DNA of 64,000 nt from a virus (taxonomy: Duplodnaviria > Heunggongvirae > Uroviricota > Caudoviricetes), in the IMG/VR virus record IMGVR_UViG_3300009784_000001, positions 118,418-182,417 of that record; one strand, given 5' to 3'. The position numbers were made by a program, and so were the translations under genes. How positions within the stretch are numbered: the stretch's first letter is position 1; the number at the start of each line of letters is the position of its first letter. The notes below the pieces were generated by a model. That model was not told the origin of the DNA and did not search any database. It worked only from the letters and a program-made list of their open reading frames with translations. Positions 3,791-45,622 of the stretch are shown piece by piece.

Positions 3791-3846
3791 TGTGTTAGAC
3801 TTGAATCTCAACAAATGATATTTATATTATATATTAAAAGTAATTT

Positions 3847-6800
3847 ATGGAGAAGCATATAGTAATTACCTCTAAACAAAAAAATATAATAGAAGAATTT
3901 GAAAGAAAAAAAATATTTGAAAATGATAATTGGAACCAAGAGGGAGGATATAGTAAAGAATTATTCAATATAGTTAAATCTGAACAATTTAAAAAATGGT
4001 TTGGAGATTGGGAAAATAATCCTGATTCCTCATCAAAAATAATTGATGAAAATGGTTTTCCTTTAATTGTTTCACATAGTACTAATTCCAAATTTGATAC
4101 ATTTGATATGTCCCATTTTGGAAAAAGTGATCCAGGAATGTATGGAGCAGGATTTTATTTTATGGATGCCTTAGAAAATCACAGTTATGGGAATATATCA
4201 ATGGCAGTTTTTCTTAATGTTAGAAAACCATTTTATACAGATGCTTTTAATACAAAAGAAGAAATGGCTGATTATTTAGATATATCAGAAGATATTTTAA
4301 CACAAAATGAGGGGGGTTTTAGACCAAGCATTAATTATGCACAAACATTTAATTCTCATGTAAGAGAAAAAGGGCATGATGGAATTGTAGTAAAAAATGG
4401 AAGCTGGATTGGAGAAATAATAGTATTCAATCCAAATCAAGTAAAATCTGTAAGAAATCAAGGTTTTGATGAATATAGTGACAATATATATGAAAACTTA
4501 ATTTACATAAATGAAATGAGTTATGAGTTGCCTGGATTTAATACTACAAAGCTAAAAAATGATTATTTAAAAAGTCAAAAAAAATTATATGAAGGATTAA
4601 TAACTTCATATCCTATTGAAAATGTTATAAAATTTATAAATAAAAGTGGGATATTAAATGGTGGGAAAATATGGAAAGAGAGTGAATATAATACTTTTGA
4701 AAATACAATATTAAATGATTTATATAGCTTTTGTATTGTTTTAGAAGGAAATAAAATTAATGAAGAAGAAATAAATAAATTAATGGATAGTTATGGATAT
4801 TATCAGAATGGGAAAATTAATATAGATAATGGTAATATTAAATATTCTTATTTACCCAAATTTGATGTTGATGTTTCACAATTCATTAAAATTTATTTTC
4901 CAATTTTATATCATGTAACATTAAAACAAAAATTACCTAAAATAATGCAACAAGGTTTATGCCCTAAAGATAGTAATAATCAAAATTTTAAACATCCATC
5001 TTGTGTATTTTTATCAACAAATAAACAAACAGCATTAGATTTATTTAAAAAAGAAGAATATGGAATGAATGAAAAAGGGGAATATGTTTTATTATCAGTA
5101 CATATAACTGAAACAAGTGGTTATAAATTTTTCTTTGATCAAAGGGTAGAAAATGCTGTATATACTTATGATAATATTCATCCACAATTCATAACAGTAA
5201 AAGAAGAATTTACAAATGAAAATAATATGAAAAAAAAAATTATAATTACTACTGCTCAACAAAAATTGATTGAGCAATATGAAAAATACAGTAGTATAAA
5301 AGAAGATAGAAATCAACTTCAACTTCCATTTGATAATCAACCACAAGGAAAACCAAATTATTTACATTTTATTGATTTTTTAGAAAGTGTTGGAAAATAT
5401 GGTACAATAAAAGGAAATGGAGATATAGAAAAATTATATGAAAATGCTTTTGATGATGCCAGAGATCAATATGTTCAAGAATATCAAAGTTATACAGATA
5501 TAGAATATGAAGTAGAAAATAGATATCCCCAAGATGAATATCCTGAATATTATGATGAAAATGGAAACTTGAATGATAATGCAGAAGAAATTATAAATGA
5601 AATAATTGAGGAACAATTTGAGCCAGATGTAACAATAAACTTAGAAATAGATAAAAATAGAAATTTAATACATATATATAGAGAAATTACATTGCCACCT
5701 TTATTAGATTATACAAGTGGAGAAAATGATTTTTATCTTAAACTTAAACAACAATTTACAGGAGCAGGAATATATTGGAGTTGGGATAAACATGGAACAG
5801 ATGCATACTGGGGTTCTTCTGGTGGAAGTGATAATATTATTATGTATGGTTTAGTTTCTCCTGATAATGTTAATTGGATAGAAACTATTAGAATGAATGG
5901 CGATCCCACTTATAGAGATGAAAGGGAAATAAGGGTATTTAACAATGCTTCAATTGAGATATATATGATAATAGTTGATAAAACTAAACAAAAATTACCT
6001 TTACAATCTTCAATTATTGTACCAGGAGGAAACAGTGGAAGAGATTTGGCTGAAAGTACAGATATTAAATCAAAAATTAAAGTTGCTGAAAAAGAAACAA
6101 ATACAAATCCAAGTGATGCTCAAATTGATGCTGAAAATTATAAAAAGGGAAAAGTATATATAAATGGATTTAGAATTGCTATTGAACAGCCAAAAGGAAG
6201 CACAAGAAGTGGGACAGATAAAAACGGTAAGAAATGGAGTATTAAAATGAATAATACTTATGGATATTTTTTAACTACAACTAATGGATTAAATCCTGGT
6301 AAAGGGCAAGATGGGGATCAAGTGGATGTATTCCTTGGAAATAAACATAATTCAAAAAAAATATTTGTTATTGACCAGTTCCTAAATGGAAAATTTGATG
6401 AATCAAAAGTATTTCTTTTAGTTAATTCCAAAGAAGAAGCAGAAAGTGAATACCTTAAAAATTATGAAAAAGGGTGGAAAGGTTTGAAATATGTAACAGA
6501 AGTTAATGAAGAAACATTTAAAGATTGGTTATATGACAGAAAACATCAAATGAAACCTTTTGCTCATTATAAAGATATTAAATCAAATAAGATAAATGAA
6601 ATAAATTTACCTAAAATAGAAATAGGTGATGAAATAAAAATTGGCAGATTTAAAAATAAAAAAGCCACAATAGAAGATTATTATCTTGATAATAAGAGCC
6701 AACCAAAAATAAAAACTAATAAGGGAGATAAAAAAGTTTTTAACTTTAATATAAATGAAGCATTAGGAGTTAAGTTTGATTTAGTTCCAATCGCTGAATA

Positions 6801-9800
6801 TGTAACACAAGCAATAGTAGAAGATAGTAATTTTGAAGATTATATACAAGGTGCTGGTGAAGAAGATATAATAGGAGATTTGGAAGGACAATTTTTATTA
6901 GAACATACAGAAGAATTAGGTTTTATTGACAGTATTGTTGTATATTATAAATTATCAGAAAATGATTGGGACAGGGAAGATAGTTGGGCTAATGCTGATA
7001 ATGCAAAAATTAAAGATGGCTTGTTACATGGATTTTATGGAAATGAAGGGAGCGTTGAAATTTATATTTCTGCATTATATGATAAAGGCAATATATTAGA
7101 ATTGGTTACACATGAAGTCAAGCATTTATATGATTCTTATATTAAATTAATGAATAATAAATCAGATGATGCTTGGAATGATACAATGTATGGTAAAATA
7201 AAACAAGTTTCTGAAAATAATCCATTAAATGATGTATTTTATTTGACAGGAGGAACAAAAGAATTGGAAACATTTACACAACAAAGTTATCAGGAAATGT
7301 TAAATAACAGAGGGAATTATAAAGCAACAAGGTTATGGGGAAACTATGAAGATTTACTTAAAGCAAAAGAAAGATATAAACAATGGGATGAAGAAACATG
7401 GAAAGAAAAAATGTCATGGTATCCAGATGGTTATTCTTTTGAAAAAGCAAAAAAAGATTATATTTCAAGAATAGACAAAGGTATAGAAGATTACTTAAAA
7501 AATATAGGAAGATTAAGAAGTTTATATCAAAATAATAATGTTTCAAATGCAAATGAAAGTTTAGAATATTATCATGTAACAGATGCTTCTCCAGAAAGTG
7601 ATGAATATAAAATTTTAAAAGAAGGAAAAATATATAATAATTATGAAGAATTATTAAAAGATAAAAATGTTAGTATAGTAAAAAAAATAGGTGAAGGTAA
7701 TGATGGTTCAGCTTATCTTTTAGATAATAATATGGTTTTAAAATATACTACCTATACAAAAGAAGCTGCATTAGCACAACAATTATTGAATAAAAATCTA
7801 AAACATTTTGTTAATATATATGAAGTTGGAAGAATGAGTAATAATAATGTATATTATATTTTGATGGAATATGTATCAAATATTGATAAAAAATTAAATA
7901 AAAAATTTGATGAAATTTTAACAGAAAAAAGTATTGAATATCGTAAAATGGGAAATGATACGCCAAAATATTGGAATAATTTTAATAGACCCGCATTTTT
8001 ATTAGAATCTAATTTTATTAATTTTTTAAAAAATGATAAATTACTTGATAATGATTTTTGGAATATTGCAAAACAATTTATAGATGCTTTAAATGAATTG
8101 ATAAGTAATAATATTTTTCCTATATTAGACTTTCATTATGGGAATTTTGGATTTACAGAAGATGGTACATTAAAATTATTTGATCATTGGTCAGCAATAT
8201 CATATAATAATAAATTGGATGAAAATATTATCAATGAAAAATTTATGAAATATCATACAAGAGAAGAGATTAATGAAATATTTAAAAATTTAGTGAAAGA
8301 AGTAAAAGAAAGAATAATAAATAAAGAAATATTAAGACCTGGAAACCCTTATTTTTTAGAAACAGAAAATTCAAACAAAAGAGGAGTTTCATTTTATTTT
8401 GAAATTCCAATATTAGAAATTAAAATAAGAGTATCTGATCATCCATTACAATATGATATAAACAGAATGTGGAATGAAAATCATTTTGATTTAAGTGAAG
8501 ATAATTTAGCTGATAAAATTGCTAATCTGATAAATAGGAAAACAGAAAATGTAACTGTTCCTTCACCAATAAAACATAATTTAAAATTAGTTAAGAAAAA
8601 TATTATAATACCAGAAAATAAATTATATTTAATTAAAAATATATTAAAAGAAGCATTATCAAGTATAGTATATCATTTTACTTCTTTAACAAATTTTTAT
8701 GAAATAGCAAAGCATAATGAAATTTTATTATCATCATCAATAGCCAAAGATGCAGAATCAAAATATGATAAGGGTACGTTCTTTTTATCATTAACTAGAC
8801 AAAAAAATTCTGATTTAGGATATACTGCTGGTTGGAATGATAACTTTGTAAGAATTGAATTTGATGGAGATAAGTTAAATCAAAACTTTAAAGGTGAACC
8901 AATGAATTATTGGGGAGCGAGTATGGGTAAAGATTATTATATGAAAAGAAGAGATAATGTACGAGATTGGGAGCAATTACAAAAACAGAAAAGAACTGAA
9001 AATGAAGATAGATTATATTCCAATAATAATAAAATACAGAACATATATAAATATATTAAAAGAGTTGATGCCTTAGTAAAAATAGATAATATGTATAGAT
9101 ATATTTACCCACCAATGCTTAATTGGGATGGTAAAGTTTTTGTTTATGATAATTTAAATGAATTTAATAAACAATCAGAAAATACTATTAATGACAATTT
9201 AAAAGAATGGTTTAGATCAAGTAAAGAAGAAGATTCATATATGCCTATGGAAAAAAGTGGGGGAAATATAATTAATACAACATTGAATTATATTTTCAAA
9301 TATATGGCAACTTATGAATATCTCAAAGGAAATACTGATTTTAAAATAAAAGAAGCTATACCAAAATATTTACAAAATTATAGCCTAAATGATCATAAAA
9401 ATTTACTTTTAAGCACTTTTAATACAAGATATTTACCCAATAATGTGGAAATGATAGCAGAAGACCTTCAACAAAAATTAAGAGAACTTTCAAATTTTCC
9501 TAAAAATGATGATTCAAGAAAAGTATTACAATTATTTTCAGATTATGTAAGAAATAACAAAATAAAAGACTTGAAACGTCCATTGGTTAGGGAGAGTATA
9601 GAAGAAAATATTGAATTAGAAGTTGATGCCAATCAAATAAATCTTAAATCATTTGAAAAGAAAGATGAATTAAATCCGAAATTATTTCAAAATGATAAAC
9701 TTAATTCAAAAGTAAGATTAAAACTTCTCGAAATTGCTGATGATTTTGTTGATTTTCTTGAAATACCATGGACTGAACCAAGAGATATTGTTTTAGTTGG

Positions 9801-10362
9801 AAGTAATTCTGGTTACAACTGGTCAAAATATTCTGATATTGATTTACATATTGTTTACAATTTTAATGAAGTTTCAGATAAAACTGAATTTGTACAAAAT
9901 TACTTTGATTCAAAAAAAAGTGAATGGAATGATAGATATGAAGGCTTAAAAATTTATGGCTATCCTATTGAATTATATGTTGAAAATTTTAAAACTCCTG
10001 CAACATCTAATGGAAGATATTCATTAGAAAAAAATGAATGGTTACAATTTCCTTCAAAAGAAAATAATATAGAATATGATAAAGAATATGTAAAACAAAA
10101 ATCAGCAGAAATTATGACTAAAATTGATGATTATGAAGAAGAATTTAAAAATAATAAAGATTCTGCTGTTTTATCTGATTTAGCTGTTAAAGTTAATAAA
10201 CTTTGGTCGAAAATAAAAAATGCAAGAAAGGAAGATATAAGAATTCATAATGAAAATGGAATTTTTAATATGATTTTTAAAGTACTTCGTAGAAGTGAAT
10301 ATCTTCAAAAATTATATGAATTGAAAACAAGTCTTTTTGTGTTTTCAAATTCTTTAAGATAA
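3847..10362 (+). CDS. Large polyvalent multi-enzyme protein (ART-like x3-4, inorganic pyrophosphatase-like, HExxH peptidase, kinase-like, Pol-beta nucleotidyltransferase); putative internal head polyprotein
   Basis: FKKWFGDWE...SHST...GAGFYF (ART-PolyVal type); LYHVT; IYRE/GIYWS/DERE; DGDQVDV; THEVKH; IGEGNDG/VLK/DFHYGN/LFD; YHFT; VGSNSGYNWSKYSDIDLH. Confidence 0.85.
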   Translation: MEKHIVITSKQKNIIEEFERKKIFENDNWNQEGGYSKELFNIVKSEQFKKWFGDWENNPDSSSKIIDENGFPLIVSHSTNSKFDTFDMSHFGKSDPGMYGAGFYFMDALENHSYGNISMAVFLNVRKPFYTDAFNTKEEMADYLDISEDILTQNEGGFRPSINYAQTFNSHVREKGHDGIVVKNGSWIGEIIVFNPNQVKSVRNQGFDEYSDNIYENLIYINEMSYELPGFNTTKLKNDYLKSQKKLYEGLITSYPIENVIKFINKSGILNGGKIWKESEYNTFENTILNDLYSFCIVLEGNKINEEEINKLMDSYGYYQNGKINIDNGNIKYSYLPKFDVDVSQFIKIYFPILYHVTLKQKLPKIMQQGLCPKDSNNQNFKHPSCVFLSTNKQTALDLFKKEEYGMNEKGEYVLLSVHITETSGYKFFFDQRVENAVYTYDNIHPQFITVKEEFTNENNMKKKIIITTAQQKLIEQYEKYSSIKEDRNQLQLPFDNQPQGKPNYLHFIDFLESVGKYGTIKGNGDIEKLYENAFDDARDQYVQEYQSYTDIEYEVENRYPQDEYPEYYDENGNLNDNAEEIINEIIEEQFEPDVTINLEIDKNRNLIHIYREITLPPLLDYTSGENDFYLKLKQQFTGAGIYWSWDKHGTDAYWGSSGGSDNIIMYGLVSPDNVNWIETIRMNGDPTYRDEREIRVFNNASIEIYMIIVDKTKQKLPLQSSIIVPGGNSGRDLAESTDIKSKIKVAEKETNTNPSDAQIDAENYKKGKVYINGFRIAIEQPKGSTRSGTDKNGKKWSIKMNNTYGYFLTTTNGLNPGKGQDGDQVDVFLGNKHNSKKIFVIDQFLNGKFDESKVFLLVNSKEEAESEYLKNYEKGWKGLKYVTEVNEETFKDWLYDRKHQMKPFAHYKDIKSNKINEINLPKIEIGDEIKIGRFKNKKATIEDYYLDNKSQPKIKTNKGDKKVFNFNINEALGVKFDLVPIAEYVTQAIVEDSNFEDYIQGAGEEDIIGDLEGQFLLEHTEELGFIDSIVVYYKLSENDWDREDSWANADNAKIKDGLLHGFYGNEGSVEIYISALYDKGNILELVTHEVKHLYDSYIKLMNNKSDDAWNDTMYGKIKQVSENNPLNDVFYLTGGTKELETFTQQSYQEMLNNRGNYKATRLWGNYEDLLKAKERYKQWDEETWKEKMSWYPDGYSFEKAKKDYISRIDKGIEDYLKNIGRLRSLYQNNNVSNANESLEYYHVTDASPESDEYKILKEGKIYNNYEELLKDKNVSIVKKIGEGNDGSAYLLDNNMVLKYTTYTKEAALAQQLLNKNLKHFVNIYEVGRMSNNNVYYILMEYVSNIDKKLNKKFDEILTEKSIEYRKMGNDTPKYWNNFNRPAFLLESNFINFLKNDKLLDNDFWNIAKQFIDALNELISNNIFPILDFHYGNFGFTEDGTLKLFDHWSAISYNNKLDENIINEKFMKYHTREEINEIFKNLVKEVKERIINKEILRPGNPYFLETENSNKRGVSFYFEIPILEIKIRVSDHPLQYDINRMWNENHFDLSEDNLADKIANLINRKTENVTVPSPIKHNLKLVKKNIIIPENKLYLIKNILKEALSSIVYHFTSLTNFYEIAKHNEILLSSSIAKDAESKYDKGTFFLSLTRQKNSDLGYTAGWNDNFVRIEFDGDKLNQNFKGEPMNYWGASMGKDYYMKRRDNVRDWEQLQKQKRTENEDRLYSNNNKIQNIYKYIKRVDALVKIDNMYRYIYPPMLNWDGKVFVYDNLNEFNKQSENTINDNLKEWFRSSKEEDSYMPMEKSGGNIINTTLNYIFKYMATYEYLKGNTDFKIKEAIPKYLQNYSLNDHKNLLLSTFNTRYLPNNVEMIAEDLQQKLRELSNFPKNDDSRKVLQLFSDYVRNNKIKDLKRPLVRESIEENIELEVDANQINLKSFEKKDELNPKLFQNDKLNSKVRLKLLEIADDFVDFLEIPWTEPRDIVLVGSNSGYNWSKYSDIDLHIVYNFNEVSDKTEFVQNYFDSKKSEWNDRYEGLKIYGYPIELYVENFKTPATSNGRYSLEKNEWLQFPSKENNIEYDKEYVKQKSAEIMTKIDDYEEEFKNNKDSAVLSDLAVKVNKLWSKIKNARKEDIRIHNENGIFNMIFKVLRRSEYLQKLYELKTSLFVFSNSLR

Positions 10363-10441: not shown

Positions 10442-12088
10442 ATGAGTAGAGATAAATTAACTCCTGAACAACAAAAAGCACAAATGCTTCACCTTATGAA
10501 TTTTAGAGGAGAAGTTAATGAAAACAAAAATACAAAATTAGGAACAGTTGAATATGCTAAGTTGGGTCCTAATGATAAAACGTATGCAATTATCAAAGAA
10601 AACAATAGATTTTATATTGAAGTTGCTCCCAAAAAAGATAATGTAGTATTAGAAGATTATGAATATCTTGGAGGCTCAAAAATATATAAAAATTTATATG
10701 AATATACTTCTTATAATCATGCTTTAAAAATATTTGAAGAATATATGATGAATCTTAATAGTTCTCATGGTAAAGTTTTGAATGAAGAAAAAAAGCAAAA
10801 TGAATATCAAGAATTAATGACTGAATCTTCTCTTTCAATGAAAAAAGAAATAGAAAGACAAAGACAAATCATGATAAATGCTTCAAAGATTATGAATGAA
10901 AGTTCAGGAATGACTTCATATAAATTGAATGAAGAAAATGCACCAATGACAAAACATCCAGGAGATCCTGAAAGTAATGGAAAAGCAGGACCTTTTCAAA
11001 AACAAGGAGATCCATTTGTTATAACAGATAAGCCTGGCGATATGAATGATTTATCTAATAATGGTAATCCAGGCCCAGTTGCAACAGCAGGTGATCCATT
11101 TGATAAAGGGACAAAAGGTGAAAAAGCAGAAGATTCCACAGTTGTAAAAGATTTAGGAACAGCTGGTCAAGGAAAATCTATTGCTATGGCAGAACCTCCA
11201 ACAGAAGCAAAAGCTGTAAAAGTTAATGAAGGTGCATTAAATGAATTGAGTATTGATGATGATTCTATTTTAACAGATGAAATATCACCTGATGAAGATG
11301 AAATTTCATTAGATGATGATTTATTCAGTGATGATGATACTTCAATGAGTAGCAATGCTGCTATTGATACACAAGATGTAGATTTAGATAAACAAGACAT
11401 AGAGCTTGATTCACAAGATATAGAATTAGACCAAGAATTAATTGATAAAATTAGTGATTTAGAAAGTAAAATAGAAAATTTAACCGCTTTATTAAATGAT
11501 GAAGAAGTAGCAACTGATGAAATTGTTCCTGACACTGGTGAAGAAACAACAGATTTAGATATTGATGAAGTAACTCCTCCATTTCAAGAATCAAAACAAA
11601 AAATTAATCAACCAACATTAAAAGAAACTATCAAAAAAGCTGTTAATTCAGGAAAAGGTGCTTATTTAGTTAATGAAGATGGTACTGTATTACATGATTT
11701 TGGGAATCATCCAGGATATAGGAAAGTTCCATTTTCAACACCAGCTAATCAAGATCCAACTGAAAAACAAAGTTCAGACACAAAAGATTGGTTTGGTCCA
11801 TCAGCAGCAAATGATCAACCATTTGGACAAAAAATAGGAAGTGGCGATCCATTTGAAGAAAAAGTACAATTAATAACTGATGCAATTATGGCAGAATGTA
11901 TTAAAAAAGGTATCTTCAAAAAAGTAAATGAAAAAATGGAAGTTACTCCTGATTGGGAGCCTAAAAAAAAGGGTAATCATGAAAAGAGTTTAGCTATGAA
12001 TCGTTTGGATGCCAATGGTACAATACATGGAGATTTTGCTGATAGCCAAAAGGGGACGAAAATGTCAGAAAATAAAAAAAAAGTGTAA
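10442..12088 (+). CDS. Acidic putative prohead/internal head protein with GDPF repeats
   Basis: 548 aa, Asp/Glu-rich core, repeated GDP(F) motifs and x-N-E sites; TATTTAT upstream. Confidence 0.6.
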   Translation: MSRDKLTPEQQKAQMLHLMNFRGEVNENKNTKLGTVEYAKLGPNDKTYAIIKENNRFYIEVAPKKDNVVLEDYEYLGGSKIYKNLYEYTSYNHALKIFEEYMMNLNSSHGKVLNEEKKQNEYQELMTESSLSMKKEIERQRQIMINASKIMNESSGMTSYKLNEENAPMTKHPGDPESNGKAGPFQKQGDPFVITDKPGDMNDLSNNGNPGPVATAGDPFDKGTKGEKAEDSTVVKDLGTAGQGKSIAMAEPPTEAKAVKVNEGALNELSIDDDSILTDEISPDEDEISLDDDLFSDDDTSMSSNAAIDTQDVDLDKQDIELDSQDIELDQELIDKISDLESKIENLTALLNDEEVATDEIVPDTGEETTDLDIDEVTPPFQESKQKINQPTLKETIKKAVNSGKGAYLVNEDGTVLHDFGNHPGYRKVPFSTPANQDPTEKQSSDTKDWFGPSAANDQPFGQKIGSGDPFEEKVQLITDAIMAECIKKGIFKKVNEKMEVTPDWEPKKKGNHEKSLAMNRLDANGTIHGDFADSQKGTKMSENKKKV

Positions 12089-21193: not shown

Positions 21194-23134
21194 ATGCTAG
21201 TAGATGTAAAAAAAATACATGAAGAATATATCAAGTGTTACACTAATCAGAGTCGCATTTATATGATAGAGAATTATTTTAGAACTTTTGATGGCTCACA
21301 GGAAAATATAGTAGCATTTAATTTATTTCCAAGACAAAAAGAGTTCTTAACTAATATGACATTATATGATGGTAATATTACGTTAAAACCAAGACAAACT
21401 GGCTACAGTACAGTAACTTGTGCTAAAATAGCATGTGAAATGATTTTAGCAAATGAAGAAAAACCATTGAATATATTAGTTATAGCACAGAATCTTAAAA
21501 AAGCACAAGAAAATGCTGCATTGATAAAGCAATTTATTAAACAAATCCCTTTATGGTTTTTTGGTAAAGAATATATACCAACAACAAAAGCAGAAGAAAA
21601 ACAAATGTGGAAAAAAATTTTGGTAAAAAATACAATGACAGATATAGAATTGAATAACGGTTCAAAGGTATATGTTAGAGCAGCCACACCAAATGCTTCC
21701 AATGGTATATCAGCAGTTTCCATACTTTTCTGTGATGAAGCAGCATATTTTGAAAATGGTATGTCTGTTTTCACAGAAGCTATCCGAACAACATCTACTA
21801 TAAAAGATAAATTAGTCATAATGGTTTCTACACCAAATGGTAGAGATGAATTATACTATGAATATTATCATAATGCTTTAAAAGGAAAAAATGGATTTAA
21901 AGTTACTGAAACCAGATGGACAGATGATCCAAGATATAATAGATTTTTAAAATTTCATAAGGAAATTATAAAAATCAGAGAAAATGGAGAAGAATATATA
22001 GATACAGAATGGCTTGAAGAAGAAACAATAGATAAAAAAGGAAATGTTTTGTGGCAGCCAGAGAAATGGAAAAAACTTGAAGGTGAAGGATGGAAAGCAA
22101 CAAGCCCATGGTATATTAAATCTTGTTTAGAAAATAATAATGACAGAAGATCCATTGCTCAATCTCTTGAATGTAGTTTTATTGGTTCTGATGCTATTGC
22201 TGTTGAGCCAAAAATAATTGATATGCAAAAAAACTTAAATGTTTCTGATCAATATAAAACCGACCCTTTACAACCAGATACTTGGATATGGAAGCCTCCA
22301 ATTTCAGGACATAGATATATTATGTCAATAGATGGAAGTAGAGGAGATGCAGGAGATAATGCAACAATTGAAATTAATGATATAGATGCCATAGATGAAC
22401 ATAATAATCCATGTATTGAGCAAGTACTTGAATATTCAGGGAAAATGGCTATGGATTTAATTGGAGAGTTAGCATATAAATATGGCTTGTTATATAATAA
22501 TGCTTTTTGTGTTGCAGATGCGATTGGAGGTTATGGAGATGCAGCAATTTTAGTTATGTTAAGAATGGATTACCCCAATCTATATTATGATACTATTACT
22601 GGAAAAGATTATTTGATAGATACTAATTTAACTTCTTTCCAACCAAATAAAGATGGGCAATTACCAGGATTTCATTCAAAAGGAGTAAGAAATTTTATGA
22701 TACAAAATTTCATTAATAAATTAAGAGATAATGTAATGAAAATTAGATCAACAAGAGTTATCAGTGAACTTGAAACATGGATTATAAACAGTACTGGAAA
22801 AATTGAACATAAAAGTGGCAAACATGATGATACTTTAACTAATTTAGCAATGAATTTATTTGTTTATGAAAATAATTTTCTTAAATTAGAAAAGCAAAAG
22901 GAATTAGATAAAGCAATTATAAAAAGTTGGATAAACTCATTAAGCAATCCAGTTAAACCAATAAAAACAGAAGATTCAACAATAAAATATATTGAGCCAA
23001 ATAAGTATCTTGATTCAAAAATATATAATTCAAGTAATATGGGAATCAAAAAGAATCCTTATATGTGGGTATTTAGTAAAGATTTAAATAAGCAACAATA
23101 TAGAAATCCATATTATACTTATAGATATAAGTAA
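21194..23134 (+). CDS. gp17: Terminase large subunit
   Basis: LKPRQTGYST (Walker A region), ILFCDEAAYF (Walker B), MVSTPNG (coupling motif), nuclease YIMSIDGSRG and KHDDTL. Confidence 0.93.
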   Translation: MLVDVKKIHEEYIKCYTNQSRIYMIENYFRTFDGSQENIVAFNLFPRQKEFLTNMTLYDGNITLKPRQTGYSTVTCAKIACEMILANEEKPLNILVIAQNLKKAQENAALIKQFIKQIPLWFFGKEYIPTTKAEEKQMWKKILVKNTMTDIELNNGSKVYVRAATPNASNGISAVSILFCDEAAYFENGMSVFTEAIRTTSTIKDKLVIMVSTPNGRDELYYEYYHNALKGKNGFKVTETRWTDDPRYNRFLKFHKEIIKIRENGEEYIDTEWLEEETIDKKGNVLWQPEKWKKLEGEGWKATSPWYIKSCLENNNDRRSIAQSLECSFIGSDAIAVEPKIIDMQKNLNVSDQYKTDPLQPDTWIWKPPISGHRYIMSIDGSRGDAGDNATIEINDIDAIDEHNNPCIEQVLEYSGKMAMDLIGELAYKYGLLYNNAFCVADAIGGYGDAAILVMLRMDYPNLYYDTITGKDYLIDTNLTSFQPNKDGQLPGFHSKGVRNFMIQNFINKLRDNVMKIRSTRVISELETWIINSTGKIEHKSGKHDDTLTNLAMNLFVYENNFLKLEKQKELDKAIIKSWINSLSNPVKPIKTEDSTIKYIEPNKYLDSKIYNSSNMGIKKNPYMWVFSKDLNKQQYRNPYYTYRYK

Positions 23135-24804: not shown

Positions 24805-26865
24805 ATGGCAGATAAAGAAATAAAATCAAATAGATTACAAACTATATATCAAGCTCTTAATAGAACATTAAATGGATGGAATACTGGTAGTTTTACAACA
24901 AATGTAAAAACAGCAAACAATTCCAATACTTATAATTATGGTCAAGATATATTATTAAAAACTACTGATAAAACAGAATATGATAAAACAAAACTCCAAG
25001 CAAAACAAGATAAATATTTAGCTAATAAATGGTACACAGGTAATATACAAACAAATATCAGTACATTGAATAATATGAATCTTGTTGATTTACTATACAG
25101 GGATGTAGAATTAATGTCATCAAGACCTGAAATCAGTGCTGCTCTAGATATCTTTATGGAAGAAAGTGTAAATATCGGTGCTGATGGTAATTTAATTAAC
25201 ATATATTCCAAATCACCTCGTATTAAACAAATACTGGAAGATTTATTCATTAACAGATTACAAATTCATATTACTTTGCCTACTATCTGTAGAACAATGT
25301 GTAAATATGGAAATGCTTTTCAACATTTAAATATAAACAGTAAAAATGGAGTTATTGCTTGGAGAGAATTACCAACAGTAGAAATAAAAAGATTTGAAAA
25401 TCAATATCCTTATGGTTTTGTTGCACAAAATATGGGTGATAAAAATAATGATGATTTAGCACCTCATTTTGAATGGATGGGTGCAGGAACTCAAATGCCA
25501 TTTCGCCAGTGGGAAATATCTCACTTTAGATTGCTAAATGATTCGTTCTACAAACCTTATGGATGCTCAGTATTAAATGGAGCTAGGCGCCATTGGAGGC
25601 TTTTAAGTTTAATGGAAGATGCTATGTTAATTTATAGAATAGAAAAAGCATTTGAAAGAAGAGTATTTAAAATAGATGTAGGTGGAATTGATCCATCAGA
25701 TGTCCAAGCATTTGTACAAGAAATTGCTAATAACTTTAAAAGAAGTATTGTAGTTGATCCTTTAACAGGACAACTTGATTTAAGACAGAACATAATGTCA
25801 GTGAATCAAGATTTCTTTATTCCTGTAAGAGGTACTAATCAAGGAACTACAATAGAATCACTTCCAGCGGGTACTAATTTAGACAAAATTGAAGATTTAG
25901 AATATATCCATAATCAAATGTTATCTGCTTTAAGAATTCCTAAACCATTTTTGGGATTTGAAGAAGCTAAAGGAAATGGAAAAAATTTAAGTACACTAGA
26001 TATTCGTTTTTCAAGAGTTGTTAATCGTATTCAACAAGCATTAATAATGGAAATGAATAAAGTTGCAATTATTCATTTATATTTATTAGGATTTGATGAT
26101 GATTTGAATAATTTCACTATTACAATGAATAATCCTTCTACACAAGCTGAAATATTAAGGATTGAAGAAATGCAAAAGAAAATCTTATTATTGAAAGATG
26201 CTTTGGGTGATAGTGGAAATGGATTGCCAATTATGTCTTATAGATATGCTTTAAAAACTATAATGAAATTTTCTGATGAAGAAATTAGTGATATGTTAAA
26301 TGATATAAGATTAGAAAAAGCCTTAAGTGCTGAATTAGCATTTACTTCTCAAATTATACAAAGAACTGGCATATTTGATAAAATAGATAAATTATATGGT
26401 GCACCAAATGCACAGTATAAAGGAATTGAAAATAGCGGAACAGATGGAGTTGAAGGCACTAACATTGGTGGTGGTGGAGGCGGTGGTATGATGATGGGAA
26501 GTGATATGGGTGATGAAGGTGGCGGATTAGGAGAAAGTGATTTTGGAACTGCTCCAGAAATTGGAGGAGAAACAATGCAAGGACAAACTGAAACTGCACC
26601 AGTAGGAGAAGCTAAAGTAAATTTGGATAAAGTAAATAAATTACTTGTTGAAAGAATAGAAACAATGAAAAAAGATATACAAAATAGTATATCTACAAAA
26701 TTGCATACATACACAGATTTATATATTAAAAAATTAAAAGAAAATAAAGAAGAAAAAATTGAAAATAAAATGACACAAAATGTGGAAATTTTTGACAAGA
26801 ATTTCTTGATGAATGAAGAATATAATAAATTGGAGAAAGGGTTAGACAAATATCTTAAAGATTAA
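24805..26865 (+). CDS. gp20: Portal protein, T4 gp20-like
   Basis: PEISAALDIFMEE, LMEDAMLIYRI...RRVFKIDVG, QDFFIP.RG..GTTIESLPAG.NL..IEDLEY, LRIPK. Confidence 0.93.
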   Translation: MADKEIKSNRLQTIYQALNRTLNGWNTGSFTTNVKTANNSNTYNYGQDILLKTTDKTEYDKTKLQAKQDKYLANKWYTGNIQTNISTLNNMNLVDLLYRDVELMSSRPEISAALDIFMEESVNIGADGNLINIYSKSPRIKQILEDLFINRLQIHITLPTICRTMCKYGNAFQHLNINSKNGVIAWRELPTVEIKRFENQYPYGFVAQNMGDKNNDDLAPHFEWMGAGTQMPFRQWEISHFRLLNDSFYKPYGCSVLNGARRHWRLLSLMEDAMLIYRIEKAFERRVFKIDVGGIDPSDVQAFVQEIANNFKRSIVVDPLTGQLDLRQNIMSVNQDFFIPVRGTNQGTTIESLPAGTNLDKIEDLEYIHNQMLSALRIPKPFLGFEEAKGNGKNLSTLDIRFSRVVNRIQQALIMEMNKVAIIHLYLLGFDDDLNNFTITMNNPSTQAEILRIEEMQKKILLLKDALGDSGNGLPIMSYRYALKTIMKFSDEEISDMLNDIRLEKALSAELAFTSQIIQRTGIFDKIDKLYGAPNAQYKGIENSGTDGVEGTNIGGGGGGGMMMGSDMGDEGGGLGESDFGTAPEIGGETMQGQTETAPVGEAKVNLDKVNKLLVERIETMKKDIQNSISTKLHTYTDLYIKKLKENKEEKIENKMTQNVEIFDKNFLMNEEYNKLEKGLDKYLKD

Positions 26866-31561: not shown

Positions 31562-32281
31562 ATGATACTTAAAGAGATAAAAAAAAATCAATTAGGTACT
31601 GGTTTACTTATCGAAAATGATGGTTTTATTAGTATTAATGATCCTAACAACAAAATATTAAAAGAAGAATTAGATAAAGGAACTAATGATGGTAATTGGT
31701 ATATTCCTTATCCTTTTATTGTTCATGCTTTATTTCAAAGAGCTAATAAAGAAAATGCAAATGGTAGAATATATCCAAGAGATGTTCTTGAAAGGCAAAT
31801 TGAATTATATCAACAAAAAATACAGGAAAGAAGAGCATATGCGGAATCGAACCATCCTTCCGATATTGTATTAGACATCAATAACTTATCTACAAATGTT
31901 ATAGAATTACATTGGGAAGGAGATAATGTTCTTGGGCAAATGGAAATATTATTATCGCCTGGATATGTAAAACATGGGATAGTATCTACCAGTGGGGATA
32001 GATTAGCAAATCTTCTATATTTCAATAAAGTTAAATTAGGAGTTAGTTCAAGAGGAGTTGGTTCAGTTGAACAAAAATTTGGAAAAATATTAGTTCAAGA
32101 TGATTTTGAATTAATATGTTTTGATGCAGTTACTGATCCTTCTACTCATAATGCTTGGTTTGACTTGAAAAAAGAGGGGTTGTCGCCTTATTTAGAATCT
32201 AAAGAAAAAATAAATAAAAATAAAATTTATATAATAGAAAAATTAGATAAAATTATAAACAAAAATAAATTAATATTATGA
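31562..32281 (+). CDS. gp21: Prohead core protease, T4 gp21-like
   Basis: FQRANKENANGRIYP, YAESNHP (His), LGVSSRGVGS (Ser), FDAVTDPST. Confidence 0.93.
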   Translation: MILKEIKKNQLGTGLLIENDGFISINDPNNKILKEELDKGTNDGNWYIPYPFIVHALFQRANKENANGRIYPRDVLERQIELYQQKIQERRAYAESNHPSDIVLDINNLSTNVIELHWEGDNVLGQMEILLSPGYVKHGIVSTSGDRLANLLYFNKVKLGVSSRGVGSVEQKFGKILVQDDFELICFDAVTDPSTHNAWFDLKKEGLSPYLESKEKINKNKIYIIEKLDKIINKNKLIL

Positions 32282-34231: not shown

Positions 34232-36166
34232 ATGAGAGAATTTTTAGGATCTGCTCAAGTAGGAAATATAGAATTGAACGAGCAGAAAAAAGTTAAAAAA
34301 ATGATTCTGGAACGTTGGGATGGATTAGGTTTCACCGAAGGTTTACATGGACATTTGAAAGAAACTATCGCAACATTATACGAAAATCAAGCTAAATATT
34401 TGATGATGAATGAAGCAACAGACTCCGCTAATAGTGGTTCTTTTGAAACTGTTGTATTTCCAATCATCCGTAGGGTATTCAGTAGATTGTTAGCAAACGA
34501 TATTGTTTCTGTACAAGCTATGAATTTACCTATTGGTAAATTGTTCTTTATAATTCCTGTAACATCAGAAAGACAATGGAATGGTTTGGACGCACAAGGT
34601 AACACACAAGATGGTTCATCTGGTGGTCATGTTGGTTTAATGGGTTATGAAAGAGCCGATAGAAATTGGGAAAATACTGGAAAAGGTTCACAAGGTGTCT
34701 ATAACAATAGATATTATTTACCTGATGAAGTTATTACTTCAAATGTAACTGAAAGACCTGTTCCTACTTTTGATACTGTTGATCCTGTAACTGGAATGCC
34801 TACTTCTACATCTGTTAGAAATATTCCAGTAGTATCACAATATTTCAAAACTTCTTTATATGATTTATTCTATAATGATTTTCTGTTTGATAATTCAAAA
34901 GGAAAAATCTGGATTAAAGTTGCTGCAACTGCTACTCCTGTTATCTTAAATGATAGAAGAGAATGGGTAAATGTAAGTGGTGCTACTTATCCTGCAAGTA
35001 GAATGGATAATACTACAAGAAACGTGATTCTTGAAGTAACTGGCTTTAATAATTTCAATGCTGGTAGATTAACTGGTCCTGACGGAAACGAAATGGATAC
35101 AGAAGCATTTATTGCTTCTTTAAAAGTATTAACTGTAAATCCTATCGAAGATTCTGCTGACAAAGGTTTTACAACTTTTGCTCAATATGAATCAATTCCT
35201 TTCAGAATTATGACACAAAAATATGGTAAAGGAATCGTTGAATATAACGATATTTGTGATGCAAACGGTAAATTATATATCGAATTAGATATGACTAAAC
35301 CAACTGTTGATCAAGGTTTAACTATTGATGGATACATTGGTGTAGATAATACTATCAACTTTGACGTAGATTCTTTTGTAGTATCTTGGGCACAATATGA
35401 TAGCTTAGAATTGGAAACTGAAATTGGTGAAGTTTCTTTCAAATTAGATTCAGTTGTTGTTTCTGTTGAAGAAAGAAAATTAAGAGCTACTTGGTCTCCT
35501 GAATTAGCACAAGACGTTGCTGCTTTCCATAATATTGATGCTGAAGCTGAATTAACAGCTATCTTATCAGAACAAATCGCTGCTGAAATTGACAGGGAAA
35601 TCTTAAGAGATTTAAGAAAAGTTGCTCCTTGGCAAGCACGTTGGGATGTTAATGGTTGGAGAAGAATGGCTGCTTTCTCTACTAACTATACACAAAAAGA
35701 CTGGAATCAAGAATTTATTACTAAAATAAATCAGATTTCTGCTCAAATCCACAAATCTACTTTAAGAGGTGGTGCAAACTTTGTTGTAGTTTCTTCTGAA
35801 ATTAGTGCTTTATTAGATAACTTGGAATATTTCCACGTAACGGATGCTTCTGCTGAAAGTGATCAATACAACATGGGTATTGAAAAAATTGGTACTTTGC
35901 AAGGTAGATACCAAGTATATAGAGATCCTTATTCTCCTCACTGGTCAGCTATTATCGGTCATAAAGGAAAATCATTGTTAGATACTGGTTATATTTATGC
36001 ACCTTATGTGCCTCTGCAATTGACACCAACAATGTATAATCCGTTCAATTTCGCCCCAGTGAAAGGTATTATGACAAGATATGCCAAAAAAGTTTGCAAC
36101 AATAGGTATTATGGTCACGTTCGGGTGGACGGGCTTGTAACTTGGAACACAAATGAGTTTAGATAA
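34232..36166 (+). CDS. gp23: Major capsid protein, T4 gp23-like
   Basis: LLANDIVSVQAM, RKLRATWSPELAQDVAAFHNIDAEAELTAILSEQIAAEIDREI, GYIYAPYVPL, MTRYA. Confidence 0.97.
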   Translation: MREFLGSAQVGNIELNEQKKVKKMILERWDGLGFTEGLHGHLKETIATLYENQAKYLMMNEATDSANSGSFETVVFPIIRRVFSRLLANDIVSVQAMNLPIGKLFFIIPVTSERQWNGLDAQGNTQDGSSGGHVGLMGYERADRNWENTGKGSQGVYNNRYYLPDEVITSNVTERPVPTFDTVDPVTGMPTSTSVRNIPVVSQYFKTSLYDLFYNDFLFDNSKGKIWIKVAATATPVILNDRREWVNVSGATYPASRMDNTTRNVILEVTGFNNFNAGRLTGPDGNEMDTEAFIASLKVLTVNPIEDSADKGFTTFAQYESIPFRIMTQKYGKGIVEYNDICDANGKLYIELDMTKPTVDQGLTIDGYIGVDNTINFDVDSFVVSWAQYDSLELETEIGEVSFKLDSVVVSVEERKLRATWSPELAQDVAAFHNIDAEAELTAILSEQIAAEIDREILRDLRKVAPWQARWDVNGWRRMAAFSTNYTQKDWNQEFITKINQISAQIHKSTLRGGANFVVVSSEISALLDNLEYFHVTDASAESDQYNMGIEKIGTLQGRYQVYRDPYSPHWSAIIGHKGKSLLDTGYIYAPYVPLQLTPTMYNPFNFAPVKGIMTRYAKKVCNNRYYGHVRVDGLVTWNTNEFR

Positions 36167-36320: not shown

Positions 36321-37331
36321 ATGGAAGGTAAAAGATTTACACAAGAAGAAGCTATTGGAAGATTTAAAGAAATCTTTCCAAATTACGATTATTCAAAAGT
36401 TGAATATAAAAATATAAAAAATCCTGTTTTCATTATTTGTAATGAAATTGGTCATAGCAAATTTAAACAAGTACCTGAATTATTATTAAAAGGAAGAGGG
36501 TGCCCTAAATGTGCTGGTAGAGAAAATATTAAATCTTATGGTTATTGGAATAATTTAGATAATTGCATTGAAGAAGCAAAAAAATATCGAAATAAATTTG
36601 AATTTAATAAAAAATCTTATGGCGCATATATGGCTGTTCAAAGAAATGGTTGGATGGAGAAAATAGATATATTATTTGATAAAACTATTTTATACAAAAA
36701 TTACAATGAAAAAATTCATTCCATTTACATTTATAAATTTGAAAAAGAAAAAACTTGTTATATCGGAAGAACAAATTCTTTGAAAAGGAGACATAGACAA
36801 CATAAAAATGGGACAAAGCATAAAAGTGGTATGATGACTTATGATGTTGTTTATTTATTTTGTGAAAATAATAAAATACAATTCCCTGAACCAATTATTC
36901 TTGAAGAAAAATTGGATGCAAAAGAAAGCCAGATACAAGAAAAGTATTGGGTAGATTACTTTAAAGAAAAAGGGTGGAATTTATTAAATAAAGCAAATAC
37001 AGGTGAAAATATAGGCTCATTAGGAGCAACTATAAAATGGGATTATGAAGCCTGTAAAGAAGAAAGTAAAAAATATAATTCAAAGCATGAAATGAAATTA
37101 AATAATCAAAGTGCTTATAATTCAAGTTTAAGAAATGGATGGATAGATAAATTTTTTATTCAAGTTAAAAAGCCACAAGGTTATTGGCAAGATATAAATA
37201 ATTGCAAAGAGGAAGCAAAGAAATATAAAAATATTAAACAATTTGCAGTGAATTGTGGAGGTGCATATAATATATGTAGAAAGAATGATTGGGTTAAACT
37301 TCTTGAATTTAAAAATACAGAAAAAGGATAG
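36321..37331 (+). mobile_element. GIY-YIG homing endonuclease-like gene
   Basis: SIYIYKF...CYIGRT...RRHRQH...QEKYW...LLNK; Zn-ribbon N-terminus; repeated GYW...C.EEAKKY modules. Confidence 0.8.
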
Positions 37332-38677: not shown

Positions 38678-40000
38678 ATGGATAAAGATAAACAAACGAT
38701 AGAACAATTTTTTACCAAATTAACAGAAAGTATTTTCAAAAAAATGAATGAAGATGGGATGGCTTTTGCTGGCTTTGGTGATAATGCTTTTTCCGATCCT
38801 TATGGTTCTGATGATATACAAAATACTTCAATGGAAGATTATGATGTACCTCAAATAGGAGAAGATTTTAGTTCAGTAGATGAAGTTGAACAAGCATTTG
38901 CTAATGGAGATATTGATGAATATGATGCTGCAAGAGAATTAGCTTATTTCACAGGAAATATGGAATGGAATGATGCAATGGCATTAGTAAATGAATGGGC
39001 AAGAGAATATGGTATGAATGAAAATAAGATGTTTAAAAACAAACAAAAAATGGATGAGAATAAATGTAATGGAAGTTGTATAAGAAAAGTGGGAAATAAA
39101 TGGAGAGTAGTATCTGGGAAAACTGGTAAATTATGGGATGCAGAATATGATACAAGAGAAGATGCTGAAGCTGGGTTAAGAGGTTATTTTTTCCAAAAAG
39201 AATCGAAAAATAAAACAACTTCTAAAACAATAAAAGAAGCTATTAGACCAATGGTTGAAAAATATTTGAAAGAATGGGAAACACCTAAAAATTTATATAA
39301 GGGGGGAGATAATGATTTTCTTAATGATTTACCACCTGATACAGCAGGTCTTTCAAGAGGTGGGGAAGATACTAAAGCAAAAAGAGAATTTGTAAAAATG
39401 GCAGAAGCTGTTAAAAGTTTTTATATTGATTTTTGGGGTGGAATGGGATATAGTTTAGGAAGATATAGTAAAAGATATGATGTTTTAAAAAAGCCAATAA
39501 GAGATTTAATGACAGGTATTGGAGAAGTTTATCGTGATATTCATAATGAACATTATTTTAATAAACCACAAGAAAATGATGGTGAAATTGAAGAAGCTAC
39601 TACAATAGGCTCGGTTGGTGCTTTTTCTTATGATGCCCCTGCTTTTTCTGATGCAGCAACCACAAATCATCATAAGGTTAGTGAATCTCAATTAAAAAAT
39701 GCTATTAAACCACTAGTTGAAAAAATATTGAAGGAAAGTGAAGCCTCAATGGAAAAAGCAAGAAGATATGCTGAAAAAATGGCAAGACAAAAACAAATGG
39801 CTTCACAACAAGGTAGTATAGATAAATTAAGGGCAGAATTAGGAATACCTGAAGATGAAGAATGGACATTAGAAGAATTATTACAATTAAAGAAAATAGA
39901 AGATCAAGATAATGCATGGAAATCAAGAAAAGTTGATTTAGGCTGGGATACTTCAGGTTCTACATTAGATGTTCCAAGTGTTGGATTTAATCCAATGTAA
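38678..40000 (+). CDS. Modular hypothetical protein, putative internal head protein
   Basis: 440 aa; short modules bounded by MNE/MDE/LKE; IRKVGNKWRVVS.KTGK beta-hairpin; leader-like VSESQLKNAIKPLVEKILKE. Confidence 0.6.
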   Translation: MDKDKQTIEQFFTKLTESIFKKMNEDGMAFAGFGDNAFSDPYGSDDIQNTSMEDYDVPQIGEDFSSVDEVEQAFANGDIDEYDAARELAYFTGNMEWNDAMALVNEWAREYGMNENKMFKNKQKMDENKCNGSCIRKVGNKWRVVSGKTGKLWDAEYDTREDAEAGLRGYFFQKESKNKTTSKTIKEAIRPMVEKYLKEWETPKNLYKGGDNDFLNDLPPDTAGLSRGGEDTKAKREFVKMAEAVKSFYIDFWGGMGYSLGRYSKRYDVLKKPIRDLMTGIGEVYRDIHNEHYFNKPQENDGEIEEATTIGSVGAFSYDAPAFSDAATTNHHKVSESQLKNAIKPLVEKILKESEASMEKARRYAEKMARQKQMASQQGSIDKLRAELGIPEDEEWTLEELLQLKKIEDQDNAWKSRKVDLGWDTSGSTLDVPSVGFNPM

Positions 40001-45070: not shown

Positions 45071-45622
45071 TTAAGAAGTGGTTTTAATAAATTTAGCTAT
45101 TTCTACTGCTTTTGATTTTTGAGAAATTGGACAAGCAGAAGCTGCCCTATGAGTAAATGCAAAAAATACTTCACCATCTTTCTCATCTTTTGCTTTTCCT
45201 TTATGTATTAATTTGCCACTTTTGTTATTACCATCCCAATATAAAACACCTTTATCTTTAAAATAACTTTCTTCTTCTGGTGTTAATTCAACCTGGTGAT
45301 TTTTTAACCAATCTAATCCACCATATTGTTTTTGTTTAGATTCTTTCAAAGTAACATTTTGATGATTTCCTCCTAACATATATAATTTTTTGCTTGTATC
45401 CCATTTTGCTGGAACCCAATGTAATCCATTTGAGTCAGTATATGGTTTTCGTGTATCTTCTTCTTCATTTTCACCTATTAAACCTGTTGGATCAACATGA
45501 TTTAACTCTTTCTTTTTCCAAGGATCAGGAGGTTCTTTATAGCCCATTTTTTTCATAACATTTGAAGCTGCATTTTCTTCAAATAACCTATTATATTGAT
45601 TTTCACTTACTATAACTTTCAT
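45071..45622 (-). CDS. Hypothetical protein with MKVIVSENQYNRLFEE leader
   Basis: 183 aa; leader motif; ATGA-type coupling to the upstream gene. Confidence 0.6.
   Translation of the reverse strand: MKVIVSENQYNRLFEENAASNVMKKMGYKEPPDPWKKKELNHVDPTGLIGENEEEDTRKPYTDSNGLHWVPAKWDTSKKLYMLGGNHQNVTLKESKQKQYGGLDWLKNHQVELTPEEESYFKDKGVLYWDGNNKSGKLIHKGKAKDEKDGEVFFAFTHRAASACPISQKSKAVEIAKFIKTTS

Follow-up and report, generated by a model that had tools for sequence, protein, structure and literature searches.

A ten-unit polyvalent protein of a jumbo phage with motifs of the head-protease type at its module junctions

Polyvalent proteins, in which unrelated effector domains are strung along one chain, are regarded as the earliest weapons that a phage fires into a cell, and it may be asked by what means unrelated enzymes in a single 250-kDa chain are loaded and converted into working units. 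This question is raised by an open reading frame (ORF) in the 64,000-nucleotide (nt) stretch of phage DNA analysed here (hereafter the window: bases 118418–182417, as a single piece, of the 359,943-bp virus record IMGVR_UViG_3300009784_000001, which has direct terminal repeats and ~25% GC). The ORF (3847–10362, plus strand; window positions are given throughout unless stated otherwise) is an uninterrupted ATG-to-TAA frame (TAA, 10360–10362) encoding a protein of 2171 amino acid residues (aa; P0001). An initial annotation had read it as a beads-on-a-string array of enzymes that is packaged in the prohead, cut apart by the gp21 homolog of the phage, and injected; the array is indeed encoded in one frame, and ten units could be delimited in it. 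We consider the odds about even (a probability of roughly 0.5) that this polyprotein is packaged in the head, cut by the T4-type head protease, and delivered with the DNA. The polyvalent array, a protease of family S77, a matching capsid site, and the enrichment and conservation of that site at module edges stand as observations, from which we infer the packaging, cleavage, injection, and enzyme targets.

Judged by its sequence, the product is a phage-type polyvalent protein of the class described by Iyer, Burroughs, Anand, de Souza, and Aravind in 2017 (PMC5512222), who argued that such proteins, notably those bearing InPase, are packaged and injected as weapons of conflict, and that embedded metallopeptidases (MPTases) process them. 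Members of the class carry several (2–15) distinct effector domains; here at least five modules were identified independently among the ten delimited units, and two signature domains both exceed their curated cut-offs, namely the ART-PolyVal ADP-ribosyltransferase (ART) of module 1 (3964–4497, plus strand, aa 40–217; PF18760, E = 1.2e-14 at aa 67–205) and the InPase pyrophosphatase of module 4 (6058–6591, plus strand, aa 738–915; PF18823, E = 2.8e-43 at aa 757–895), the latter agreeing with the pyrophosphatase predicted at the outset. The BLAST matches of module 1 are the ART regions of classical polyvalent proteins, and the PHROG families matching the InPase region are annotated as minor head protein, virion structural protein, or DarB-like. 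The gene sits in a phage with a portal–terminase packaging system, comprising a T4-type portal (24805–26865; PF07230) and a large terminase (21194–23134). A comparison of domain order in relatives, which the initial annotation had proposed, showed that module sets vary and that modules occur fused or standalone. The more than 100 long relatives are classical polyvalent proteins sharing InPase and/or ART-PolyVal only, and the closest relatives (P0002–P0008) share the C-terminal module together with variable sets of the other modules; in P0002, module 4 is 82% identical and its junction reads IDE.

The protease that could divide such a chain, a prohead protease of the T4 gp21 family (S77; 31562–32281, plus strand; PF03420, E = 4.5e-19), is located where the initial annotation had placed it. 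It aligns to T4 gp21 (PDB entry ID, 5JBL) and retains NHP and GVSSRG, which we take to be the catalytic His and Ser motifs of the T4 gp21-type protease. The major capsid protein belongs to the gp23 family (644 residues; 34232–36166; PF07068), and the propeptide site MMNE↓A (arrow, position of the presumed cut), also recognized initially, corresponds to its residues 58–62 (34403–34417, plus strand) in an alignment of 80 clade capsid proteins. Aligned with T4 gp23, the propeptide site of these 80 proteins reads [LIM]-x-E↓[ASGTN], and the VVFPIIRR segment downstream of it aligns with T4 gp23 as well. The P2 position (x) is free, being Y, N, S, T, K, or R, so that the rule in the clade is aliphatic-x-Glu and the earlier restriction of P2 to N, K, or R did not hold. 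The capsid protein is common to >80 contigs of up to 412 kb; it matches T4 gp23 at aa 73–108 and 399–618 only, which suggests that ~290 residues are a clade-specific insertion.

Motifs of this kind recur along the polyprotein. Those listed in the initial annotation are all present (YINE at aa 220, SIKE at 483, LAES at 734, KINE at 303 and 915, NINE at 968, NANE at 1234, IINE at 582 and 1461, ILKE at 1256 and 1599, and LVRE at 1913), and most of them lie at module boundaries as claimed; the exceptions are KINE 303, which falls in the core of module 2, and IINE 582, in the interval taken as the core of module 3. The junctions, all on the plus strand, include INE↓M after module 1 (4507–4515), VKE↓E after module 2 (5197–5205), LAE↓S after module 3 (6046–6054), INE↓I after module 4 (6592–6600), INE↓A (6751–6759) after a small unit (6601–6750, aa 919–968; 'SH3-like' in the initial annotation) that has a site on either side, and INE↓K after the kinase-like module (8230–8238). 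The standalone homologs P0125 and P0126 terminate at the end of module 2.

For [LIVM][NKR]E, the polyprotein contains 22 copies versus 9.8 expected (z = 4.2), the top score among the 34 genome ORFs of at least 550 residues, and the genes of the ClpB-like ATPase, terminase, and portal have no such excess. The other top scorers are an acidic neighbour of the polyprotein, a protein beside the capsid gene, a scaffold-position protein, and the gene after a paralogous array. With core limits drawn by us from Pfam matches, standalone homologs, and models, and therefore not blind, the density of [LIVM]-x-E was 0.045 in linkers versus 0.022 in cores (p = 0.0085; 0.003 by composition-matched shuffling), the linker-to-core ratio of densities was 3.7 for [LIVM][NKR]E, and a site was present in eight of nine linkers. 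A second test, independent of the module boundaries set by us, used the BLAST homology breakpoints of 22 related proteins, of which 61 of 99 had a site within −20 to +6, as compared with 39.1 ± 4.8 at random positions. The enrichment of Glu motifs at module boundaries, on which the initial proposal had been made to depend, was thus found both in the linkers and at the breakpoints.

Three of the junctions (aa 1–25, 461–486, and 1576–1602) are relics of N-terminal leaders from once separate genes. Leader 1 (MEKHIVITSKQKNIIEE↓FE; 3847–3921, plus strand), with I-I-E and I-E-E sites, is of a type common to the segment at aa 461 and to ART4, the family to which module 9 belongs; leader 2 (MKKKIIITTAQQKLIE↓QYEKYSSIKE↓D; 5227–5304, plus strand) is an internal copy of this N-terminal leader, and a regular-expression scan of the genome found the pattern of leaders 1 and 2 at aa 1 and aa 461 of the polyprotein alone. 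Leader 3 (KKNIIIPE↓NKLYLIKNILKE↓A; 8572–8652, plus strand) carries the motif of the ART4 family, in which [LIVM]-x-E stands five residues before VYHFT in 91 of 91 members with a locatable YH.T motif, and most members have a second site nine residues upstream, within a leader of the form M.K.I.I.E[SN]Q...L[LI].E. In the AlphaFold2 (AF2) model of module 9, leader 3 is coil plus a short helix (predicted local distance difference test score, pLDDT, 57–75), solved ART folds align with the module starting at the residue after the leader-3 Glu, and the motifs internal to the module sit in confident helices. The C-terminal module 10 is preceded by VRE↓S-IEE↓N (9586–9606, plus strand), and 15 of its 16 homologs, fused or standalone, have aliphatic-x-Glu with free P2 at the same aligned position just N-terminal to the module; standalone proteins among the 16 start with MENHYKLHE↓N and MNLNE↓L. 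Homologs of the kinase module have [LI]-N-E at the N-terminal edge, and in one relative the leader type is joined to an unrelated domain. Elsewhere in the window, a 183-residue ORF on the minus strand (45071–45622) starts with MKVIVSE↓NQYNRLFE↓EN, a leader of the type seen in the ART4 family, and may encode further cargo.

The same motifs would have to be explained otherwise if the polyvalent protein works, and where packaged also travels, as one intact chain, as modelled by the N4 virion RNA polymerase (vRNAP) and P1 DarB; they would then be left uncut and stem from composition, amphipathic helices, and inherited leaders. We regard this as the main rival reading, with a fairly low probability. 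Aliphatic-x-Glu is frequent in this Asn/Lys/Glu/Ile-rich proteome (proteome-wide ratio, 1.18–1.37) and is compatible with amphipathic helices; 38 of the 59 [LIVM]-x-E copies in the polyprotein fall in cores, so that the motif alone is no predictor of cutting. The invariant Glu on the N-terminal side of the ART4 fold terminates a predicted short helix, and could for this reason be structural. Iyer et al. cite packaged or transferred polyvalent proteins that are uncut (N4 vRNAP, ArdC, and TraC1; PMC5512222), and the known cuts in T4 and SPN3US cargo remove N-terminal propeptides and none of them separates enzymes (PMC9958956, PMC10052503). Together with the non-blind core limits noted above, these points weigh against cutting in the head, as do three others: the junction between the HExxH and kinase modules reads just A-N-E, and NANE 1234, although present as listed in the initial annotation, departs from the capsid site in having Ala rather than an aliphatic residue at P3; the gene lies 14–21 kb upstream of the head gene block, adjoining that of the ClpB-like ATPase; and no cultured relative with a virion proteome was found, the closest capsid match (41%) being from an uncultured phage. 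An uncut chain has in turn to contend with a linker enrichment that persists after composition-matched shuffling, with the lack of any motif excess in the large control proteins, and with module-edge sites that are conserved, with free P2, in distant homologs and that occur, in standalone proteins, within N-terminal peptides of 5–9 residues.

Cutting by the head protease would have a parallel in T4: the internal proteins IPI–III and the ART Alt carry a capsid-targeting sequence, are trimmed by gp21, and pass into the host by injection (PMC9958956). The two systems have in common an S77 protease, the aliphatic-x-Glu rule, short leaders ending in the motif, and an ART as head cargo (presumed to be so here); whereas each T4 cargo protein is a single unit from which one short N-terminal peptide is removed, the present protein would be cut at as many as nine internal junctions and would yield separate enzymes. 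We found no paper on a head protease cutting between the enzymes of a chain. The prohead protease of SPN3US acts on the ejection proteins of that phage (PMC10052503), and among the ejection and inner-body proteins of SPN3US, phiKZ, and 201phi2-1 site-rich propeptides are cut several times (PMC5694885, PMC7411985, PMC10052503). These are likewise jumbo phages with a three-residue motif ending in Glu, and their heads carry a large cargo mass; however, they belong to a different lineage, the motif is A/S/G-x-E, and the reported cuts remove propeptides, none separating an enzyme chain.

The chain might alternatively be cut by its own module 6 (6760–7554, plus strand, aa 972–1236), which contains HEVKH at nt 7111–7125, the HExxH motif noticed initially, and might act as a metallopeptidase, whether prior to packaging, inside the head, or after entry into the host, with the head protease uninvolved. 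Processing by MPTases was proposed by Iyer et al. (PMC5512222), and other HExxH-type modules occur in relatives (HEMIHH; a G004 protein). In four homologous sequences, the motif HEVxH and the acidic residue downstream of it are invariant (H121, E122, H125, and D128), and the predicted topology is a β-sheet followed by a long helix bearing HExxH. The AF2 model is, however, of low confidence (pLDDT, 67.9), and no peptidase came out of any search made with the module: it matched no Pfam family, its profile found nothing in PDB, a word-indexed alignment search gave no homolog of 146–595 residues, a wide fold search of the model returned generic helical bundles alone (Z-score up to 7.4), and Foldseek against PDB gave nothing below E = 0.04. 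Moreover, most relatives sharing the junction sites are without the HExxH module, and the junction motif is the site of the capsid protein and no known zincin site. We therefore consider self-processing improbable; the evidence favours the T4-type head protease, rather than an embedded metallopeptidase, as the processing enzyme.

When the gene is expressed, and beside which genes it is kept, bears on whether the protein is head cargo at all. A promoter-like motif, ATATTTATA (3818–3826, plus strand), lies 21 nt 5′ of the start codon of the polyprotein gene; 20 copies were observed versus 10.9 expected, ten of the 11 copies on the plus strand are 24–38 nt upstream of start codons (measured from the motif start), and the genes so preceded include those of the protease, capsid, fibre, and polyprotein, making the motif a candidate late promoter element of the phage. 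Plus-strand copies in the window start at 2575, 3818, 17290, 26866, 28890, 31535, 34194, 36297, 38601, and 38647. Directly downstream of the polyprotein gene is that of an acidic low-complexity protein of 548 residues (10442–12088, plus strand) with ten [LIVM][NK]E sites versus 1.9 expected (z = 5.5), at least five of which are conserved in five clade homologs at 27–35% identity; it is a candidate head-core or internal protein that is cut multiply. Across four complete genomes of the clade, the C-terminal module is found as a 275-residue gene product, as a 303-residue gene product, at the end of a 903-residue protein, and in the middle of a 1999-residue protein, and in all four its gene is directly upstream of a homolog of the acidic 548-residue protein.

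These observations speak to the view that the protein is no virion cargo but a late cytoplasmic multi-enzyme protein, altering the NAD, nucleotide, RNA, or protein chemistry of the host or shielding progeny DNA or RNA. In keeping with this, the searches revealed in it neither a structural domain nor a portal or MuF anchor, its upstream neighbour is the ClpB-like ATPase and no head gene, and the nucleotidyltransferase (NTase)-like 'anchor' at its C-terminus could be just another enzyme. Yet takeover enzymes expressed late would be oddly timed if they were not packaged; InPase and ART-PolyVal are domains of phage-type polyvalent proteins for which packaging is assumed; the gene is conserved next to that of an acidic protein which is rich in sites, as is typical for head cores; and the leaders resemble cleaved targeting peptides. 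A purely cytoplasmic role thus appears rather unlikely to us.

If the polyprotein is head cargo cut by the head protease, its course may be pictured as follows. The gene would be transcribed late along with the head genes; the product would enter the prohead core, guided by the N-terminal leader, the conserved C-terminal module, or both; the gp21-type protease would cut after Glu at aliphatic-x-Glu sites exposed in linkers; and the pieces would remain in the head, enter the host with the DNA, and act prior to phage gene expression. Between the HExxH and kinase modules, ANE↓S and LKE↓G flank the peptide LEYYHVTDASPESDEYK (7561–7611, plus strand, aa 1239–1255), which shares 14 of 17 residues with LEYFHVTDASAESDQYN, a stretch of the capsid protein that this phage itself encodes (aa 531–547, 35822–35872), although the DNA of the two is just 68% identical. 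The capsid segment is near-invariant across the 80 clade capsid proteins and shows no conservation with T4 gp23. Related junction cassettes of the form ESDxYx[IL]GxE...Y[YF]HVxNE↓S recur in the polyproteins of relatives (P0002, P0132, P0005, P0197, and those of G001 and G004); when the peptide was looked for in five further genomes of the clade, the capsid gene was the sole match and no extra copy came to light. The cassette may dock cargo on a partner that binds this capsid segment, be it shell, core, or protease. More generally, and as a speculation to which we would give only a minor share of belief, cargo could be plug-and-play, in that a leader or junction cassette ending in a head-protease site tags any enzyme, and the tagged genes are strung into polyproteins that are cut apart in the prohead.

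Of the four ART-like modules predicted initially, the first is supported by Pfam as described above and the fourth at the fold level, modules 2 and 3 being weak leads. A MAFFT alignment of the whole C-terminal half was discarded because fragments of different modules were stacked in it, and the modules were folded singly. An exhaustive search with aa 960–1900 gave 1087 proteins, dominated by one unannotated family over aa ~1580–1900, ART4, which accounts for 145 of the 150 matches listed among the 1087; the matches that ART4 has in cultured jumbo phages are weak and lack annotation. Forty sequences of the family share invariant H45, S83, R86, E153, and E155, in keeping with the first-motif His and the downstream acidic residues of the ART superfamily. 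Module 9 (8653–9546, plus strand, aa 1603–1900) was modelled by AF2 with a pLDDT of 84.5 and a predicted template modelling score (pTM) of 0.80; the fold starts at model residue 37–40 and is followed by a helical domain. It resembles Tpt1 (PDB entry ID, 7yw4; Z-score, 10.2; root-mean-squared deviation, 2.2 over 107 residues) and DarT (Z-score, 8.4 over 140–143 residues), and the model thereby confirms, at the fold level, a Tpt1/DarT-like ADP-ribosyltransferase. Module 2 (4585–5202, plus strand, aa 247–452; YHVT...TYDNI family) and module 3 (5416–5979, plus strand, aa 524–711; IYR...YWSWDK...EREIR family, with the standalone homologs P0121–P0124 of 195–213 residues) are real families, since they have standalone homologs of 195–257 residues. 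When module 2 was compared with the ART4 profile by hhalign, the YH.T motif alone was aligned (probability, 0.4%); the module 3 profile gave nothing meaningful against PDB, and its look-alikes in the atlas are weak ART-type leads.

Module 7 (7624–8229, plus strand, aa 1260–1461) is confirmed as a protein-kinase-like fold by its conserved motifs and profile matches, in agreement with the kinase proposed initially: the G-loop, VxK, DxHxxN, and FD (with the metal-binding Asp) are conserved in seven sequences, the profile matched 242 kinase sequences in PDB at E ≤ 1 (best, 5e-4), all of them Ser/Thr kinases, and homologs of the module carry APH/ABC1 matches. Module 8, the 'IRVSDH' unit (8239–8571, plus strand, aa 1465–1575), is 37% identical to residues 1001–1146 of P0002, besides which no homolog was found. 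Module 10 (9607–10359, plus strand, aa 1921–2171), predicted initially to be an NTase, is probably pol-β NTase-like; the motif GS..SDIDLH is invariant, but the match to PF01909 (NTP_transf_2) is just below the threshold (20.7 bits; cut-off, 21), and the PDB matches DrrA and ANT are weak (E = 0.004–0.14).

The protein thus shares with the polyvalent proteins of PMC5512222 the joining of unrelated effector domains in one chain, a portal/terminase phage, ART-PolyVal together with InPase, and a variable domain order. It differs from them in that its junctions carry the site of the head protease, that no MPTase is recognizable in it, and that the LPD, MuF, and PBECR domains of classical members are not present; moreover, the array is built on a conserved pol-β NTase-like C-terminal module, a domain that PMC5512222 lists for proteins of conjugative elements only. 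As a large multi-enzyme protein it is also comparable to the P1 Dar proteins (DarB and DdrB) and the MuF-anchored polymorphic toxins, and its InPase region matches the DarB-like PHROG family. Those are head-carried anti-defence or toxin proteins; the shared domain is the sole homology, and head type, protease, and anchoring differ. Should the head protease cut this chain, capsid maturation and effector activation would be coupled by one readable sequence rule, cargo sets could be predictable from genomes alone across a very large uncultured clade of jumbo phages, and foreign proteins tagged with the leader or junction motifs could be loaded into T4-type heads. The list of candidate injected effectors is also extended by the ART4 family, which is large, unannotated, and Tpt1/DarT-like, and by the conserved NTase-like module 10.

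A second array, of 824 residues with HExxH and ART4 modules, is encoded 166 kb away in the same genome and is followed by a 605-residue protein with an excess of [LI]-x-E (19 versus 6.9 expected); the pair lies at genome positions 288574–293107 (L001 8575–13108) and mirrors the pair of polyprotein and acidic protein. On a T4-like contig, ART-PolyVal and ART4 are separate neighbouring genes beside a T4 gp13-like gene. The site-rich proteins at 38678–40000 of the window and at L001 11291–13108 share CNGSC[IV]RKVGN.WRVVS.KTGKLW and are possibly paralogous head-internal proteins. The sole nucleotide-level match of the window in the phage collection is at 5971–6133, where module 3 ends and InPase begins, with 77.5% identity over 163 nt to Prevotella Lak megaphages. 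Because of this megablast match, a Lak-like recoding of TAG was considered; it was rejected, as the ORF ends with TAA TGA and stop usage in 57 large ORFs is normal (TAA, 45; TGA, 10; TAG, 2), indicating the standard genetic code. Directly 3′ of the capsid gene, an ORF with GIY-YIG and DUF723 matches (36321–37331) may be a gene of the homing-endonuclease type.

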